A stretch of 60,294 nt of DNA, filler included, from an uncultured virus (IMG/VR IMGVR_UViG_2049941000_000903) (lineage: Duplodnaviria; Heunggongvirae; Uroviricota; Caudoviricetes). It is 14 parts of one record of this genome, joined end to end, with 100 filler letters (N's around TTAATTAATTAA, not from the genome) between each part and the next. Parts side by side here need not be neighbours in the genome. Positions count along the whole stretch, not along the records: positions 14,988 to 36,482 come from IMGVR_UViG_2049941000_000903; 13 more parts are not named here. The stretch is one strand, 5' to 3'. Below, one piece after another: positions 28,034 to 41,473 of the stretch (within the stretch, counting starts at the first letter, position 1; every line of letters starts with the position of its first letter). Position numbers and translations under genes: made by a program. The notes under the pieces are model-generated. The model did no database searches. It saw only the letters and a list, made by a program, of their open reading frames with translations, and had not been told where the DNA came from.

Positions 28034-28915
28034 TTATCTTATCCAATACTGCTCTTGTTTTCTCCTTTGGGCATTCCACTTATCAGACGAAGCACCACCC
28101 TCTACACTACTCAAGAACTTGCTCATACTTTCCTTGTGATAATCATCATCGAAGTATTTGATATTATCCTCTATGGATTCTGCACCATATTCATCTACCA
28201 TCTCCTTTAACTTGTTAATGTCATCCATTGAGTACGGAATTTTAGGTAATATAGTCTTCCATCTTTGCCATTCCTTTGCACTAAAAGGATACTGATTCTT
28301 GTTATCACCCTCGCGTGAGGAATCATCAACCTCACTAACAACCTTATCAACTTGTTGATGCTGATTATTTAAAAAAATAATTTCTTTTTCTTGGTTGGGA
28401 GTCTGGTTGTTACAGTGGTTGTTATCTATTGTATATATATACTCGGTTGAAATTCCGCCCGTGGACGATTGCAAATCCTCTCGTGGTCGGGATGTTTCTT
28501 CATTCGTGGACGGTTGAGATTTCTCCCGCCCTTTCTTGTCCCAGAGCGAGATTAAATTAGGTTGATAATATGCGATGGTTTCTTTATCTACGGTGTACCA
28601 AGGAGTCCTATCGTAAGCCTTTTTGTTATACACTCCCCTTTCAACAAGTTTTAATTCAACAAGACATCTCAATGCCCTCTTCGCTTGCCATTCGGTCACA
28701 TAATCGTAGTCCGGAACTTTGAGAATATCCGCCACGGAGAAATGAGTCCAGTAGCGACCATCGTGAAGGTTCTTGCCGTCGTGCTCGTTCTTTAAGACCC
28801 AATAACAAATGTATTGGAAGAAGTCAACGGCGATGTAATCACCTTTTGTTTCTCTTATTAACTTTCGACTGAGGGTTACTAACTCGCCCTCGTACTTTTG
28901 ATAGTGTTTTCCCAT
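28034..28915 (-). CDS. Second lambda-O-like replication initiator (HTH)
   Basis: HDGRYWTH and YNKKAYDRTPWY motifs; internal CGTGG(A/T)CG repeats at 28460, 28482 and 28505. Confidence 0.7.
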   Translation of the reverse strand: MGKHYQKYEGELVTLSRKLIRETKGDYIAVDFFQYICYWVLKNEHDGKNLHDGRYWTHFSVADILKVPDYDYVTEWQAKRALRCLVELKLVERGVYNKKAYDRTPWYTVDKETIAYYQPNLISLWDKKGREKSQPSTNEETSRPREDLQSSTGGISTEYIYTIDNNHCNNQTPNQEKEIIFLNNQHQQVDKVVSEVDDSSREGDNKNQYPFSAKEWQRWKTILPKIPYSMDDINKLKEMVDEYGAESIEDNIKYFDDDYHKESMSKFLSSVEGGASSDKWNAQRRKQEQYWIR

Positions 28916-28937
28916 TGTGTGCGGTTTTGGGTTAAAC

Positions 28938-29090
28938 AAAAAACTCCAAAGCATCTCTGCCTTGGAGTTTCAAGCTGGGCGCACCCACCCTTTCGGGTCG
29001 CACACGGGAATTGCCCACTATATGTCAATATACAATTCGGACTTTTGTGTGGTACTTCCTGCCGTGTGCGTAGGCAGAGATAACCTCTGT
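28938..29090 (-). promoter_or_regulatory. Structured leader with terminator/antiterminator
   Basis: Terminator 28941-28970 with U tract; 29072-29081 is complementary to its 5' arm and loop; TATATTTG promoter near 29092-29099. Confidence 0.65.
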
Positions 29091-29566: not shown

Positions 29567-30190
29567 TTAATCAAGCCCTATGTGCCCCACGACAATAGCC
29601 ACGTTGAGAATGTCGGATTTGGGGATGGTATAGTCGGGGTATTCGTCGCGGTTCTCCGACCGACAAATGACGGAGTTGTCATCATCGGGGCAAGGCAGAA
29701 GTTTCTTGACAACGCATCCTTGGGTGGTGCTCAAGACATAGACGCGCCCCCATTGGAAGAACGAAGGGTCTTGGACTACGCGGATGGCAAGTATCTCACC
29801 GTTCCGGAATCTCGGCGACATACTATCACCGTCCACTCGGATGGCTAACTCCGCACCCTTGTCAATGAAGTCCGGCACATAGCAAACCTCTTGAGTGTTG
29901 AGAAAACTTGATGGAATATTCTCCGCGAGTGCGCCCGCTACCGCCGAGAACGGAAGAAGAGGTAATCCCGATACCCCGCCCTTGAACATCGGGCCTTCGC
30001 CCGTGACGAGATAATCAAGCGAAAGTTGTGGTATTTTTTCCACAACCCGAAGCATCGTCTTGGCGGTCATCCCGTCCGTGATTTTCATAAGGGTATTGTA
30101 GGACATACCCATATCACGCTCCAAGTGGCGAAGGTTCTTGAATCCGGCGGCTACGGCCACCTTTTCCAAACGTGTATGCAAATTTTCCAT
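29567..30190 (-). CDS. cI: CI-like repressor (HTH plus S24 peptidase)
   Basis: YLVTGEGPM, VDGDSMSP and VVKKL motifs. Confidence 0.88.
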   Translation of the reverse strand: MENLHTRLEKVAVAAGFKNLRHLERDMGMSYNTLMKITDGMTAKTMLRVVEKIPQLSLDYLVTGEGPMFKGGVSGLPLLPFSAVAGALAENIPSSFLNTQEVCYVPDFIDKGAELAIRVDGDSMSPRFRNGEILAIRVVQDPSFFQWGRVYVLSTTQGCVVKKLLPCPDDDNSVICRSENRDEYPDYTIPKSDILNVAIVVGHIGLD

Positions 30191-30454
30191 AATGTAACAA
30201 AAAAGTTATTTACAATGAGTATCAATTAGTTACGGCTCATCGTGCTTTTTTGTGTGGAAATTTGTCCACGATTCGTTTGGAAATATGGATTTTTGTCCAT
30301 ACCTTTGTGACAGATACAAACGGAATCGGGGGCTTATCCCTACCGAAAAAGCACATTTGACAATCGTTGGCGCGATGTTTTGTGTTCCAAAGATAGTGAT
30401 AATGCCCCACAATTCCAATTTGTACCTACAACTTTTACAACTTTTATAATAATA

Positions 30455-31131: not shown

Positions 31132-31359
31132 ATGGTTAATTACGATTTAGCGAAAGACAAGAAGTGGCGGGAGTTCATAGAGGGCATCCGCTACGGCGAG
31201 GTCGCCCAGTTCACCGTGAACTCCACGGGCGAGATTGATAACCTCCGCACGGTTGCAGGGCGCATCAACACCTCCAACGGACTTGACTATGTTTACTCGG
31301 TGGAGGCCAACAAGGAAACACTCCGAGTTCAAGTTTACACCAAGCCAAGGCTTAACTAA
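31132..31359 (+). CDS. Hypothetical protein (first gene of the rightward operon)
   Basis: 75 aa; TAATG overlap with the next gene. Confidence 0.6.
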   Translation: MVNYDLAKDKKWREFIEGIRYGEVAQFTVNSTGEIDNLRTVAGRINTSNGLDYVYSVEANKETLRVQVYTKPRLN

Positions 31360-32084
31360 TGGAAATCAAGGGAAAGGTTCACTGCCTCTTCGAGCAGTCT
31401 GGAACGTTCAAGAAGGAGTTTGAGAAGTTGGGAATCCCCGCAGAGGACTACGACATCTTCAATCACTTCAACGAGACCGACCACGTTATCGACCTCTTTG
31501 CCGAGATAGAGAAGGCGTACCAGGGGGGGGCGTCCGTGTTCGACAATATGACTCCAGACGACCTTGTGATGGCGTTCTTTCCTTGCACTTGGTTTGAAAC
31601 GCAACAAGGGATGTTCTTCGCCCTCAATCATTGGTCATTCCGCGATTGGCCGCTACGCCGCCGCGTGGAATATGTCGAAGAAAGGCTTGACCAACGCACC
31701 CACGTTCACAAGTTGTTATACCACTTGCTTGTAGTGGTGGAGGACAAGGGTATCAGACTTATCCTTGAGAACCCTTCGGCGGGCCACAGTTACATAGTGG
31801 CGGGGCAGAACTTCATACCGCCTACAATCATTGACACCGACCGAACGTTGCACGGCGACACATACAAGAAGCCGACAGCTTATTGGTTCGTGAACTGCAA
31901 GCCCGAAGGTGCGCTTACCGTCAACCGCAACTATGATACGAAAGCAATCATAAGCCAAAGGACGGGACGCTCCAAGGGCGAGGGTAGTATAGACCGAAGC
32001 CGAATCGAACCGGCATACGCACAATGGTTCATCAAGGAGATAATCCTCGGAATAACTGACACAAATGAAAACTCACTCTTTTGA
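31359..32084 (+). CDS. C5-cytosine methyltransferase-like protein
   Basis: CLFEQSG, FFPCT, LENP and KKPT motifs. Confidence 0.7.
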   Translation: MEIKGKVHCLFEQSGTFKKEFEKLGIPAEDYDIFNHFNETDHVIDLFAEIEKAYQGGASVFDNMTPDDLVMAFFPCTWFETQQGMFFALNHWSFRDWPLRRRVEYVEERLDQRTHVHKLLYHLLVVVEDKGIRLILENPSAGHSYIVAGQNFIPPTIIDTDRTLHGDTYKKPTAYWFVNCKPEGALTVNRNYDTKAIISQRTGRSKGEGSIDRSRIEPAYAQWFIKEIILGITDTNENSLF

Positions 32085-32343
32085 TTCAGTACGCGACCTC
32101 ATAAAAGAGATGGATTGCGACGAGGCACTCTTCCTCTCACCCGACTGCTACGACAAGGCAATCATAGGCATAAGCCACGATGACCGCATCATCTACTCCT
32201 ATGACAAACTCGTGGAGGTGGTAATGGAAAATGCCGGAAGCACATTCATAGACGCGCGGGCCTGGGTGGACTACAACATCCTTGAGAGCCTTCCGTCAAT
32301 GGGCGAATATTCCCCTATCGTACTCTTTGAACTTGACATCTGA
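32065..32343 (+). CDS. Hypothetical protein
   Basis: DKAIIG, YSYDK and WVDYN motifs. Confidence 0.6.
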   Translation: MKTHSFDSVRDLIKEMDCDEALFLSPDCYDKAIIGISHDDRIIYSYDKLVEVVMENAGSTFIDARAWVDYNILESLPSMGEYSPIVLFELDI

Positions 32344-32344
32344 T

Positions 32345-32569
32345 ATGGACAAGATAGACACACTCATAGACATCGGAAACGCAATACTCCGTGCGCTTAA
32401 CGAAATGAAGGAACGCGATGAGATACCGATGACAAGGCAGCAAGCCGCCGTCTATCTTGGCGTTTCCCTCACTACAATAGACAACTATCGGAAGCAAGGG
32501 CGCATCCGGCAAGTCGTAAAGGACGGCATTGTCGGATACCTCCCCTCCGACCTTAAACAAGCAAGATGA
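32345..32569 (+). CDS. Excisionase-like HTH protein
   Basis: TRQQAAVYLGVSLTTIDNYRKQG. Confidence 0.75.
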   Translation: MDKIDTLIDIGNAILRALNEMKERDEIPMTRQQAAVYLGVSLTTIDNYRKQGRIRQVVKDGIVGYLPSDLKQAR

Positions 32570-32724
32570 TGAAAGCATTAGGCTACACCTTCGCGGTTCT
32601 TGGCGCAATAGCCTTCGTTTCTCTTTTTTTCGGTTACTCGCATCAAATACTATCGGTTGCGATTTGCGGTCTTATGGCCCACGCACTCCTCACGGTAGAC
32701 GATACGAAAGAGACGCGAAGGTAG
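32566..32724 (+). CDS. 52-aa membrane peptide, absent from the ORF track
   Basis: Manual translation MMKALGYTFAVLGAIAFVSLFFG...; ATGA overlap. Confidence 0.55.
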   Translation: MMKALGYTFAVLGAIAFVSLFFGYSHQILSVAICGLMAHALLTVDDTKETRR

Positions 32725-32731
32725 GTCTCTT

Positions 32732-32901
32732 GTGATGGCAGGTGCTTGTCGGTACTCGTGAAGCAAATAGGTGGGAGTCTCGCGCGTAACGGTGCGCCCT
32801 TAGTCTTTTTGCCGTTACGTTGAGGAAAGGTGGGAGACCCGAAAGACATAACATCAAACTCCCGCAAGACTGACTTTCACCCTTTCAAAGCAAAGGGTTT
32901 T
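32732..32901 (+). ncRNA. Structured RNA, allele 1, with 3' hairpin
   Basis: Compensatory changes relative to 34522-34694. Confidence 0.75.
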
Positions 32902-32906
32902 CCATT

Positions 32907-33767
32907 ATGAAATACGGCCTTAACTACCAGGGGAGCAAGAACCCAATCGTCGAAGAGATGTGTGACTTGTTCCCCAAGAAAACGAATTTCTACGACCTCT
33001 TTATGGGCGGCGGTGCGGTGACGCACCGGATGCTCCAACTCGGCACTTTCGAGAGGTACTTCGCATCGGATATAAACAAGATGCCCGTCAACCTCTTCGC
33101 TAACTGTTTCTACGGTGACATCCCCTCCCCCAAGTGGGTGGAACGAGATGACTTCGAGGCTCTCAAGTCAAGCAATCCCTATGTAGCGTGTTGCTACTCG
33201 TTCGGTGGCGATTGGAGCTCCTACCTCTACTCAAAAGAGAAAGAGCCAATACAACGGGCACTACACCTCGCGGTCGTGGACGATGACTTTACGGAGACAA
33301 ACAAACTTGGTATTGACATAGAATACCTCACCGCTTTCAACTCTTGGCGGTCACGCCGTTTGATGTTGCTCTCTGAAGGCTATCGGCTCATCGAACTTGA
33401 AAGGATGGAGCAACTCATAGCAATATCCAAACTCAAGCATCCCAAGAGCATCCTCTTCGTGGATTGGCCCTACGACAAGTGGGAAATCCGGCCCGACTCC
33501 GTGGTCTATTGCGACCCTCCGTACAAGGACACGAAAGGCTATGTGGCAAAGGGATTTGACCACGAGAAGTTCTACGATTGGTGCAGATGCCAACGGGAAT
33601 TGACCTTCATATCCGAGTACACGATGCCCGACGATTTCATTTGCATCCGTGAGTTCACGCGACTTGAAGCGAAGTCGGCATACAAGGCATCGAATGTCGT
33701 GGAAAGGTTGTTCATCCCGCGACACCAAGAAGAAATGTATCACACTAACAAAACAACACTATTCTAA
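32907..33767 (+). CDS. Dam-like (D12 class) N6-adenine methyltransferase
   Basis: YQGSK, DLFMGGG, YCDPPY and ISEY motifs. Confidence 0.88.
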   Translation: MKYGLNYQGSKNPIVEEMCDLFPKKTNFYDLFMGGGAVTHRMLQLGTFERYFASDINKMPVNLFANCFYGDIPSPKWVERDDFEALKSSNPYVACCYSFGGDWSSYLYSKEKEPIQRALHLAVVDDDFTETNKLGIDIEYLTAFNSWRSRRLMLLSEGYRLIELERMEQLIAISKLKHPKSILFVDWPYDKWEIRPDSVVYCDPPYKDTKGYVAKGFDHEKFYDWCRCQRELTFISEYTMPDDFICIREFTRLEAKSAYKASNVVERLFIPRHQEEMYHTNKTTLF

Positions 33768-35055
33768 ATGAAAGTCACTTGTAACAAAAAAGACCTTCTC
33801 GCCGCTATCAATGCCGCGTTCAAGGCCGTCCCGTCGAAGGCAAGCATCCCTATTATGGAGTGTTTCAAACTTGAGGCCACCGACGAGAAACTCGAAATCA
33901 CCGCTACGGATGGAATGATGACCATCATATCCATCGCGGAAGCAAAGGGCGAAGGTGCCGCTTGTCTTGGTGCTAAACTCCTCCTTGATGCTATCCGCGC
34001 CCTCCCCGACACCGACATTGAGTTGTCCACCGACGAAGCATCTTGCAAGGTGGATTACGGAACGGGTATGTTCTCTCTCCCCTGCTATCCCACCGAGGAC
34101 TTCCCTACCATCACGGTGGATATGTCCAAGGCGATGAACGTTGCCGTGTCCGAGAAGATTAAGACGGGTCTATCGTTTACTCTTCCGGCGGTTGCGAAAG
34201 ACCCGATGCGTCCGGCACTCAACGGCGTGTTCTTCAATCCTACCGACAACGGTTTCGACCTCGTTGCCACCGATGCCCACGGCCTTGCACTCAAGACCAT
34301 CGCTTGCGACCGAGTGCCTACCGAGGGATTCATCATCCCCACCTCCGCCGCGACCTTCATCCGCGACAACGTGTCCGTTGACGATACCGTGATGTTTTGT
34401 GCCGATGACACCAAGGCGGAGTTCTGGTTCGGCCACATCATCCTCATCGTCACGAAGATTGTGGGAACGTTCCCCAAGTACCAAAGCATCATCCCCGCCA
34501 ATAACCAANNNNNNNNNNTAAGTGATGGCAGGAACTTGTCGGTTCTCGTGAACTAATTAGGTGATGGTCTCGTGCGTGACGATGCGCCCAGGAGTCTTTT
34601 TCATCGGCACGTTGGGGAAAGTCGGGGGCCGTAAAGACATAACGACAAACCATCGCAAGACTGACTCTCGCACTCTCAAAGCAGAGTGCTTTTTACGAAA
34701 TCTAACAACAACAGCGATATGAAATTCACTACCCAAACAAAAGACTTTCTCAAGGTCATCAACACGGCAATCAAAGCCGTTCCCGCAAANNNNNNNNNNA
34801 CAGACCATCGGCGAGACGAGCATCGAGGCACAAGATGTCGGTTTCGGTTGTGCCGCCCGTGAGGATATGGAGTTCGTATCCTACAACGGCGAGAGTATGA
34901 ACATCGGATTCAAGCACGAGTTGCTTTGCGACTTGCTTGCCGCGATGGGCGCGGATGAAGTGACCGTGAGTTTCGGGAACAACCGTCAGGCGGCACTCAT
35001 CACTTGCTCCGATGAAACGTGCAAGAGTTTGATAATGCCCGTAGCAATTCAGTAG
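33768..35055 (+). CDS. dnaN: DNA polymerase III beta sliding clamp (gapped; variant start at 34719)
   Basis: ITATDG, EDFP, RPALNGV, VATDAH, FPKYQSIIP and LIMPV motifs. Confidence 0.88.
34522..34694 (+). ncRNA. Structured RNA, allele 2
   Basis: Homologous to 32732-32901 with covarying stems. Confidence 0.75.
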
Positions 35056-35061
35056 CACACT

Positions 35062-35655
35062 ATGAAAGAGTTACTTACAATCCAACAAAAGTTGAACGCG
35101 CCGAAGAACCAATACAACAAGTTCGGCAACTACTACTATCGTTCTTGCGAGGACATCTTGATGGCGGTCAAGCCGCTACTTGTTGAGACGGGATGCACCC
35201 TCACTTGCAACGACGAGATAATCCTCCTCGCGGATAGGTTCTATGTCAAGGCCACCTTCACCCTCACGAACAAAGAGGGGAAGTCCATAAGCGCATCGGC
35301 ACTCGCAAGAGAGCAAGAGAAAGTGACGGGCCAAATCGAAGCCCAAATCACCGGCGCGGCCTCCTCTTATGCGAGAAAGTACGCCCTCAATGCCCTTTTC
35401 TGCATTGATGACAACAAAGACCCCGATGCGACCAACACGCACGGCAAGGAAACGCCCAAAACAAGCCCTACAAAGGACACAAAGCCCAAAGCCGAGGAAT
35501 CTACCGAAGATGTGCTTAATGCCGCCTTAAAAGCCGTAGAAAAGGCTACGACAAGGGCAGAACTTGAAGGTATCTACAAGACCTACAAGAGCACCATCGG
35601 CAAGGATGCGACCTTCGTAAAGGCTCTTAATGACAAAGCGAAAGATGTTAAGTGA
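35062..35655 (+). CDS. ERF-family single-strand annealing protein
   Basis: NKFGNYYYRSCEDI and GAASSYARKYAL motifs. Confidence 0.88.
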   Translation: MKELLTIQQKLNAPKNQYNKFGNYYYRSCEDILMAVKPLLVETGCTLTCNDEIILLADRFYVKATFTLTNKEGKSISASALAREQEKVTGQIEAQITGAASSYARKYALNALFCIDDNKDPDATNTHGKETPKTSPTKDTKPKAEESTEDVLNAALKAVEKATTRAELEGIYKTYKSTIGKDATFVKALNDKAKDVK

Positions 35656-40942: not shown

Positions 40943-41473
40943 CNNNNNNNNNNCTCGCTATCAAGAACTTTCTCGCGCCTCGCCATAGCAAGAGCAGTCG
41001 CAGATGCAAGATAATCCTCGCCAACCATAAGACCTCCGTATAGCAGGTTCAGGTTAAATACCTTTGCAAGNNNNNNNNNNNNNNNNNNNNNNNNNNNNNN
41101 NNNNNNNNNNNNNNTTAATTAATTAANNNNNNNNNNNNNNNNNNNNNNNNNNNNNNNNNNNNNNNNNNNNATCCCTGCTGCCAGTTGCCTGCTCGAATTT
41201 GTCAAAGGCAACAACGATTTGTTTCTGTATATCATCCGTTGCAGTCCTTGCACGCTTCTTGGCATTACGTACTATTCCGCTGATTGCCTTAAGTACAAGG
41301 TCATTGGTATCAGCCATAGAATGTACCCAACGGGAGAAGATATTTATATCTTTGTCGCCATGGGTAGTCATTTCNNNNNNNNNNNNNNNNNNNNNNNNNN
41401 NNNNNNNNNNNNNNNNNNTTAATTAATTAANNNNNNNNNNNNNNNNNNNNNNNNNNNNNNNNNNNNNNNNNNN

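Follow-up and report, generated by a model that had tools for sequence, protein, structure and literature searches.

In phage lambda, nut, a short boxA/boxB site, depends on the N protein and on Nus factors, and the eps-associated RNA (EAR) of Bacillales is a structured RNA that lies between genes of a long operon and aids the read-through of terminators. The c4 RNA of P1/P7 and the CI RNA of P4 are antisense immunity factors of about 77 nt; they are processed from a longer transcript with the involvement of RNase P, and their loops pair with short repeated targets. We know of no described system for antitermination or delayed-early control in temperate Bacteroidota phages, and a literature search for one found none. 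The put RNA of phage HK022 is about 70 nt long, forms two stem-loops in a V shape with an RNA triplex, and renders E. coli RNA polymerase resistant to terminators through the zinc-binding domain of the beta' subunit (PMC9378689). GOLLD and ROOL are prophage structured non-coding RNAs without an assigned function that often lie next to tRNAs; ROOL, with an average length of 581 nt, was initially discovered in cow rumen data (PMC5737381).

Here, a conserved folded RNA of about 170 nt is described from a clade of cattle-rumen phages, and it is without counterpart among the catalogued RNA families. It was found in 60,294 nt of joined sequence from an uncultured Caudoviricetes virus (IMG/VR IMGVR_UViG_2049941000_000903), hereafter the window, at positions 32732-32901 of the + strand, where model R1 matches it with 202.4 bits and an E value of 1.6e-52. 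A second copy lies at 34522-34694 on the same strand (206.9 bits). The sequence-only reading had not recognised the family, and Rfam 15 bears this out: none of its 4227 models, which include riboswitches, ribozymes, tRNA/tmRNA, 6S, C4 and GOLLD/ROOL, reached the gathering threshold anywhere in the window. At E values up to 10, the sole match between 32400 and 35000 was an unrelated chance hit to SNORD2 (33909-33935). In the related loci L005 and L006, Rfam found only a tRNA away from the element, and ARAGORN found no tRNA or tmRNA gene in the window, L005 or L006.

Compared with EAR, the rumen-phage RNA belongs to another phylum, has another fold and is phage-borne rather than chromosomal; Rfam 15 gives no match between the two, if EAR is among its models. 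Unlike lambda nut, it is large and folds autonomously, and none of the genes was recognised as N-like. The c4 and CI RNAs have a different fold, with the Rfam C4 family unmatched, and GOLLD and ROOL are far larger, of unrelated structure and likewise without an Rfam match here. With HK022 putL and putR (PMC9378689), it shares the character of a cis-encoded structured RNA on the sense strand of a temperate-phage early operon, downstream of an early promoter and ahead of terminators in front of later early genes (here a promoter-like site at 30276, the RNA at 32732 and the terminator-like hairpin P5). However, put has about 70 nt and two stem-loops, against about 170 nt, five helices and a three-way junction in the rumen RNA, and there is no sequence likeness between them; the rumen RNA is found in Bacteroidota-type phages and its activity is a proposal. 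Its map place is also that of lambda nutR-tR1, with early regulators followed by a terminator and the replication genes (PMC9378689).

The RNA opens with a hairpin (P1) at its 5' end, continues with a three-way junction formed by P2, P3 and P4, and closes with a 3' hairpin (P5). In copy 1, the helices are formed on the + strand by 32738-32746/32751-32759 (P1), 32771-32778/32858-32865 (P2), 32779-32792/32812-32824 (P3), 32829-32832/32852-32855 (P4) and 32879-32885/32892-32898 (P5, with UUU directly after). The corresponding + strand positions of copy 2 are 34528-34536/34541-34549, 34561-34568/34649-34656, 34569-34582/34604-34616, 34621-34624/34643-34646 and 34670-34676/34683-34689, the last followed directly by UUUUU. 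Two large invariant loops belong to the junction. The P3 loop (about 20 nt; 32793-32811, + strand) has a conserved GCC and the motif GUCUUUUU, invariant in a seven-sequence alignment, and the P4 loop (about 19 nt; 32833-32851, + strand) follows the conserved pattern CC..AA.G.C.AUA and is closed by a 4-bp stem that covaries at all four pairs. A 13-nt invariant linker precedes P5, whose loop sequence UCAAAGCA is nearly invariant. About 60 unpaired loop and linker positions, those of the P5 loop among them, are invariant. Compact and prone to pseudoknots, the RNA adds a new fold to those available for structural studies.

The structure was first proposed from a comparison of the two stretches, in which the linkers were said to be kept while the stems covary. 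On reading and alignment, the linkers GTGATGGCAGG, CTCGTGAA, AGTCTTT, GGAAAG, AAAGACATAAC and GCAAGACTGACT are indeed identical in both, and the four stem exchanges are as described, the sole exception being one A.G mismatch in the long stem of copy 2. The copies are 73% identical across 175 positions of the model-based alignment, and for these two alone RNAalifold gives 41 pairs, 10 of which changed on both sides with pairing kept. The resemblance reflects homology and not chance. Folding of single sequences yields energies that do not beat those of shuffles (z of -0.17 and -0.57); the case for structure therefore rests on covariation rather than thermodynamics.

Five more homologues, four of them distinct, were found in IMG/VR and in JGI/GenBank metagenome contigs, giving a seven-sequence alignment of copy 1, copy 2, L005, L006, L015, L016 and L018. 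Standard pairs fill 94.2% of its 275 pair cells, against 36.2-44.6% in slid controls with the partners moved by 1-3 columns. Persistence of the covariation as the alignment grew from two to seven sequences had been set beforehand as the refuting test: 21 of 40 pairs show double-sided changes, a number matched by 0 of 500 shuffles. Independent RNAalifold runs on MAFFT alignments found compensatory changes in 10 of 41 and 17 of 41 pairs, and P4 alone occurs in five different 4-bp versions among the seven sequences. In the strain of DNA run X5, the element changes among the differences listed are 32853 A>G and 32854 T>C, both within P4 and with pairing kept. G.U pairs occupy 35 of the 275 cells on the + strand and would read as C.A on the opposite one, which places the RNA on the + strand. 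Covariation and G.U pairs together establish a real structured RNA on that strand.

Tertiary contacts are a separate matter. A pseudoknot between GUCUUU and AAAGAC, suggested earlier from the window, does not hold, since the partner in three of the seven sequences (L005, L016, L015) is AAUGUC and unable to pair. The alternative partner, AAGACU, fared better: a 4-bp core AGUC:GRCU is present in six sequences, but the seventh is without it. A further candidate came from a helix scan of the alignment, in which the P1 apical loop GUCGG (32748-32752, + strand; invariant in 7/7) is complementary in all seven sequences to CUGAC (32870-32874) of the invariant linker; the same pair in copy 2 is 34538-34542 with 34661-34665 on the + strand. 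Both AGUC:GRCU and GUCGG:CUGAC lie beyond covariation testing because their two sides are invariant. Loop-linker pseudoknots probably hold the fold together.

The two stretches had also been taken for two alleles. Copy 2 sits on an island of 271 nt (34519-34789) flanked by N10 scaffold gaps at 34509-34518 and 34790-34799, and the beta-clamp reading frame is split there. A full-length clamp protein (P0001, 99% identical) has 32 residues in place of gap, island and gap. Downstream of copy 2 a different clamp allele begins, represented by its first 23 codons (34720-34789, + strand), and the island is identical at 243 of 272 positions (89%) to metagenome locus L018, where the RNA lies directly 5' of a full clamp gene. 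The gaps and the L018-like sequence show that the "alleles" come from two related phages joined by the scaffolder. Two homologous variants thus stand, whereas two copies in one genome do not; both complete phage genomes that carry the RNA have a single copy (2/2). As the copies are orthologues, the covariation argument becomes cleaner, and the idea of a tandem pair falls.

Searches for the RNA elsewhere delimit a small family. It comprises five lineages that belong to one phage clade, each known from cattle-gut or rumen-type metagenomes, and its reach may be narrow for this reason. Three DNA patterns gave no matches in 185,579 species genomes, and blastn with the element gave none in 50,697 phage records. 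Pattern matches at L001-L004, L009-L014, L017 and L030-L032 were discarded as chance, model R1 having rejected them; L004 was also judged chance by eye. Other pattern matches led back to contigs already in hand from the earlier searches. Related loci were sought with the clamp protein alone as query and with a clamp alignment against genome contigs, and neither search returned any. Of 58 phage records with distant clamp homologues, six (L021-L026) were scored with the model and set aside, their best scores being at most 5.3 bits; the regions upstream of these clamps resemble ordinary chromosomal dnaA-dnaN spacers. In six searched supplement files of an IMG/VR csRNA catalogue (PMC10690425), the same contig numbers are absent, and the sole clamp-upstream entry is DNAVirus_1552, of 81 nt and from freshwater.

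The position of the RNA is conserved too. It stands at the exact border between regulatory genes and a replication/recombination module (beta clamp, ERF, exonuclease), and the order of HTH gene, membrane ORF, RNA, clamp and ERF is kept in 5/5 related loci, where clamp proteins are 40-50% identical. The sequence-only reading placed it ahead of replication and recombination genes, which is true of clamp and ERF in every lineage found. Upstream on the + strand are an HTH_17 or excisionase-like regulator ORF (32282-32569; PF12728 at E 2.9e-5, under its cut-off; phrog_66), syntenic in 5/5 loci, and a 52-aa hydrophobic membrane ORF (32566-32724) with tblastn identities of 45-79% in 5/5 loci and no match in Pfam and PHROG family searches. 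In all lineages, 0-8 nt separate the stop codon of the latter from the RNA. Between RNA and clamp there may be, by lineage, a methyltransferase or tRNA-like gene: the Dam-like N6-adenine DNA methyltransferase (32907-33767, +; PF02086, E 5.8e-15) is specific to the window lineage and absent in L015, L018, L005 and L006. The clamp follows as an N-terminal part of 247 residues cut by the gap (33768-34508, +; PF00712, PF02767; 99% identical to P0001) and a C-terminal part (34801-35055, +; PF02768), and then the ERF single-strand annealing protein (35062-35655, +; PF04404, E 3.8e-40).

A CI/LexA-like S24 repressor is encoded on the opposite strand (29567-30190, -; PF00717; phrog_4, phrog_6201). Beside it, a regex scan located a promoter-like site (TTTG ... 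TAccTTTG; 30276-30307, +) of the form TTTG..TAnnTTTG, which we take to be the Bacteroidota promoter consensus. This is the one such + strand site near the immunity region and the nearest upstream of the RNA, 2.4 kb away, and the next is at 41059; simple regex found no + strand TAnnTTTG between 30300 and 41059. In 6/6 loci, the 400 nt preceding the RNA contain no promoter motif by regex, and neither does the sequence downstream of it in 5/5 related loci. The RNA is thus located mid-operon, an argument that relies on this consensus and a simple regex, and transcription must cross the RNA and P5 to reach the clamp and ERF genes. Its fixed place at this boundary, despite protein identities of 40-50%, makes it a handle on the timing of replication genes.

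The RNA probably regulates the replication genes or goes along with their expression. The reading we favour, tentatively and at less than even odds from the sequence evidence, is that the RNA governs read-through in cis into the replication genes. The RNA would belong to a long rightward early operon in a small clade of temperate rumen phages whose signals are Bacteroidota-style, would act in cis on its own transcript or on the polymerase making it, and would set the level of transcription or expression that continues beyond the terminator-like P5 to reach the replication genes. This is the part that nutR-tR1 has in lambda, put RNA in HK022 and EAR in Bacillus. P5 would terminate, and the upstream fold would modulate read-through. 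A more specific version, which we consider unlikely, is that the nascent 170-nt pseudoknotted fold licenses the replication module, either by binding RNA polymerase and making it terminator-resistant or by sensing a cellular or defence signal. If true, this would be the first known put/EAR-type element outside Proteobacteria and Firmicutes, with a structure unrelated to both. Size counts against control of read-through in cis, as the RNA-only antiterminators described so far are far shorter, with put at about 70 nt (PMC9378689). Three possible RNA runs (X18-X20) have no coverage of the element, a result that carries no information on expression.

A terminator scan scored P5 as terminator-like in both window copies. 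However, the U-run after it measures 5 in copy 2, 4 in L018, 3 in copy 1 and L015, 2 in L005 and L016, and 0 in L006, so termination at P5 is not conserved; with a nearly invariant loop and a variable U-run, P5 looks more like an integral part of the structure than like a simple terminator. Several other ideas were rejected. Pairing of a 5' tail GUGA with UCAC/UCGC at the P5 base, as an antiterminator, occurs in four type-I sequences only and fails in L005, L016 and L015. The extension expected for stop-codon read-through of the upstream ORF is not conserved, and a small ORF within P1 (MAGxCRxS) is missing from type II. An RNA-primed origin is unlikely because the phage has a replication-initiator homologue elsewhere (28037-28954) and an RNase H gene.

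A released stable RNA, freed from the early transcript by cleavage or termination and acting in trans, is the main alternative to control of read-through in cis, itself at well below even odds. Its 5' end would lie near the small-ORF stop and its 3' end at P5, by termination or RNase P, and it would act by binding a protein (as a decoy, anti-defence agent or replication-factor ligand) or by pairing with mRNA through its invariant loops. The module edges are sharp, methyltransferase or tRNA-like insertions lying right after P5 and never within the element. The shortening of the U-run to 2 or 0 coincides exactly with a tRNA-like gene immediately behind P5 (L005/L016, L006); RNase P would then define the RNA 3' end, which fits a released stable RNA, but this correlation concerns two lineages only. 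The roughly 60 invariant unpaired positions suggest a compact tertiary fold, and GOLLD and ROOL are precedents for large phage RNAs beside tRNAs (PMC5737381). The P3 loop motif GUCUUUUU is complementary to clamp codons ~6-9 (+16 to +18) in 5/6 lineages, but the fraction of shuffled loops with duplex energies at least as good is 0.09-0.60, and this pairing was rejected. Against a trans-acting RNA also stand the lack of an own promoter motif by regex and the chance frequency of AAAAGAC in the window (9 observed, 9.8 expected).

It is rather improbable that the RNA is a ligand-sensing riboswitch, in which a metabolite or second messenger, for instance a nucleotide-derived signal, would be bound by the P2-P3-P4 junction and its loops so as to control P5 or expression further downstream. 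The junction is complex and rich in invariant unpaired nucleotides, a terminator-like hairpin comes next in 4/7 sequences, and replication genes lie downstream in all cases. However, the other three have a weak U-run or none, and a scan of all seven sequences for shared helices of at least 4 bp gave none that would compete with P5, a result that speaks against a riboswitch of the classical terminator/antiterminator type. Rfam riboswitch families give no match, and confinement to five lineages of one phage clade, with none in the species genomes searched, is a very narrow distribution.

A self-cleaving ribozyme or processing site, splitting the regulatory mRNA from the replication-gene mRNA, would suit the phage context, the predicted compact pseudoknotted fold, the highly conserved junction and loop nucleotides and the location between two functional gene blocks; it is nevertheless very unlikely, as Rfam ribozyme families are unmatched even at E up to 10, 170 nt is large against the small self-cleaving classes, and no cleavage site is marked. 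A DNA-level element (a single-strand initiation site, origin or recombination site) adjoining replication and recombination genes could form hairpins in ssDNA too, yet it is scarcely credible given the initiator homologue elsewhere, G.U cells confined to the + strand and an orientation that follows the operon sense in all loci.

The ~170-nt RNA occurs twice on the + strand, at 32732-32901 (copy 1) and 34522-34694 (copy 2). Direct reading of the alignment found the six linkers of the sequence-only reading identical in both stretches, and, as that reading held, four stems differ between them by paired changes. RNAalifold, run on these two copies only, predicted 41 pairs, 10 of them changed on both sides with pairing kept. 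Single-sequence folding of both copies was unremarkable (z of -0.17 and -0.57), so the case for structure rests on covariation. This covariation was kept when the alignment grew from two to seven sequences (A8). In A8, which was fitted to the model and is biased towards it, standard pairs make up 94.2% of 275 pair cells, compared with 36.2-44.6% after the 3' partners are shifted by 1-3 columns. Both sides have changed in 21 of 40 pairs, a pattern whose observed values were reached by none of 500 column shuffles. The fold, a 5' hairpin P1, a three-way junction P2-P3-P4 and a 3' hairpin P5, also agrees with two model-independent RNAalifold runs on plain MAFFT alignments. Doubly changed pairs number 1 of 8 in P1, 6 of 8 in P2, 8 of 13 in P3, 4 of 4 in P4 (which has five different versions) and 2 of 7 in P5. 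The G.U pairs (35 of the 275 cells) place the RNA on the + strand, which is the operon's sense strand. In DNA run X5 the element of a strain variant has two listed changes, the adjacent 32853 A>G and 32854 T>C on the 3' side of P4; pairing survives each of them (U-A to U.G and G.U to G-C). Together these data speak strongly for a real and intricate fold.

The two copies had been read as two alleles; two related versions of the RNA are indeed real, but they do not belong to one genome. Copy 2 lies on a 271-nt island (34519-34789) flanked by two N10 runs, in a heavily gapped scaffold with 74 N runs, mostly of 10 or 44 bases. The island splits the beta-clamp gene, whose N-terminal 247 residues stop at 34508 and whose C-terminal part restarts at 34801; by comparison with P0001, a related full-length clamp (363 aa, 99% identical), 32 residues between them are missing from the window. 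The island holds the RNA and codons 1-23 of another clamp allele, and is identical at 243 of 272 positions (89%) to metagenome locus L018, where a complete clamp gene lies directly 3' of the RNA. Two complete relatives, one of 67.6 kb with terminal repeats and one of 65.6 kb, each carry exactly one RNA copy. Copy 1 and copy 2 are therefore orthologues, each from one of two co-occurring phages; the second "allele" arose through scaffolding and is an artefact, though a useful one. At least this one small piece of the window is thus misplaced, from a related strain, and many window ORFs are broken.

Scans with the original linker patterns found no true homologue. Relatives of the clamp are very few (three with E ≤1e-61 among 5.8 billion proteins), and an alignment of these three retrieved two IMG/VR contigs, L005 and L006, each with a recognisable RNA homologue flanked by the same small ORF and the clamp. 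A pattern of the invariant loops matched seven metagenome loci, of which five are real: L015, L016, L018 and again the L005 and L006 contigs. The other two, L014 and L017, were judged chance matches and were not matched by R1, a covariance model built from four close sequences. Among 16 sources, R1 matched exactly the seven true elements (76-212 bits), and the chance loci gave no match. Further scans added nothing. The family as found here comprises seven sequences in five lineages (copy 1; copy 2 with L018; L006; L005 with L016; L015), with pairwise identities of 53-88% except for L005/L016 at 99%. Most DNA runs that contain the window's phage carry a bovine-gut label; 20 rows from 13 studies have at least part of it, and four of those rows may represent the source sample. 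A search of 185,579 species genomes found no prophage copy.

No family in Rfam 15 matches the RNA. It shares its map position with lambdoid nutR-tR1 and putR, and EAR is alike in position and presumed logic. HK022 put is also alike in both respects but differs in being only ~70 nt with two stem-loops (PMC9378689). GOLLD and ROOL share the theme of phage- and tRNA-associated RNAs (PMC5737381). The RNA is a member of none of put, EAR, GOLLD or ROOL. In text passages and six supplement files of the IMG/VR csRNA catalogue (PMC10690425) no entry appears for these contigs, and literature searches found no description of such an element. We regard it as a new family among the operon-embedded structured RNAs of phages, a kind already known, with strong fold evidence and a narrow distribution.

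The window is a temperate phage, with an integrase, CI/S24 repressor, portal, replication-initiator homologue and RNase H. Beside the repressor, at 30276-30307, lies what we take to be a Bacteroidota-style promoter motif; similar promoter-like sites precede the integrase, and the next + strand TAnnTTTG in the window is at 41059. By reading, start codons lack Shine-Dalgarno sequences. We infer a Bacteroidota host. All five related loci have an HTH_17 gene, the 52-aa hydrophobic ORF, the RNA, the clamp and ERF (a single-strand annealing protein) in this order, confirming the placement ahead of replication/recombination genes. The small-ORF stop codon lies 0-8 nt upstream of the RNA. No promoter motif was found within 400 nt upstream in six of six loci, nor anywhere downstream in the related loci, so transcription reaches the RNA in mid-operon and continues through it into the replication genes. 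The 52-aa ORF (32566-32724) and its homologues are 45-79% identical across lineages and belong to no Pfam or PHROG family. Its start overlaps the HTH gene stop (ATGA), while its stop codon adjoins the RNA; the ORF might link the end of its translation to P1 folding.

Insertions occur only immediately 3' of P5. In the window lineage the inserted gene is a Dam-like methyltransferase, whereas L005/L016 and L006 have a tRNA-like gene there. The Dam-like N6-adenine methyltransferase (32907-33767) sits exactly between P5 and the clamp gene, a moron-like placement. Strain X5 has it too, with a single contig covering 32732-34429; L015, L018, L005 and L006 lack it. Another methyltransferase, assigned to phrog_757, is found upstream (31359-32081).

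The unpaired parts of the RNA are strikingly conserved in the seven sequences: CUUGUCGG in the P1 loop, GCC and GUCUUUUU in the 20-nt P3 loop, CC..AA.G.C.AUA in the 19-nt P4 loop, CUGACUYUC in the linker and UCAAAG in the P5 loop. Candidate tertiary pairs are P1-loop GUCGG with linker CUGAC (seven of seven sequences) and P3-loop AGUC with GRCU just upstream in the linker (six of seven). They share two nucleotides, and both are invariant, so covariation cannot test either. The pseudoknot suggested earlier, GUCUUU:AAAGAC, fails in three of the seven. P3-loop GUCUUUUU is complementary to clamp Lys-Asp codons (about +16 to +18 of the ORF) in 5 of 6 lineages, at 33786-33794 and 34738-34745 in the window and at the clamp starts of L006, L018 and L005. 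Loop-clamp duplex energies were no better than those of shuffled loops, and the 7-mer complementary to the loop was not enriched in the window.

As to function, the reading tentatively favoured is that the RNA controls in cis the passage into the replication module, which would be set by an RNA ending in the terminator-like hairpin P5. It is favoured by the nutR-tR1/putR-like place, by the terminator scan, which flagged P5 in both window copies, and by the transcription of clamp and ERF through the RNA. Counted against it are the U-run after P5, which drops from 5 to 0 across lineages, the conserved P5 loop, the lack of a competing antiterminator helix in the seven-sequence alignment, and the tRNA-like gene that follows P5 where the U-run is weakest. 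All four fit the main rival, a somewhat unlikely one, that the RNA is released as a stable ncRNA with a 3' end from termination or RNase P. A riboswitch is improbable, a ribozyme or processing site more so, and action at the DNA level very improbable.

The tRNA-like gene (L005:3872-3978 and L006:3843-3984) immediately follows the RNA and precedes the clamp. Its parts are a 7-bp acceptor stem, a D-like arm, a T arm whose loop reads UUCGACU or UCCGACU, and a greatly expanded anticodon arm whose insertion differs by 31 nt between the phages. Between L005 and L006, 8 of 26 predicted pairs are compensatory; neither ARAGORN nor Rfam at E ≤1 calls the gene. L006:612-733 is a second odd tRNA, also without an ARAGORN call, which reaches 31.4 bits for Rfam tRNA only when a 58-nt anticodon-loop insertion is skipped. 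Its MFE z-score is -3.77, and this phage tRNA may contain an intron-like insertion.
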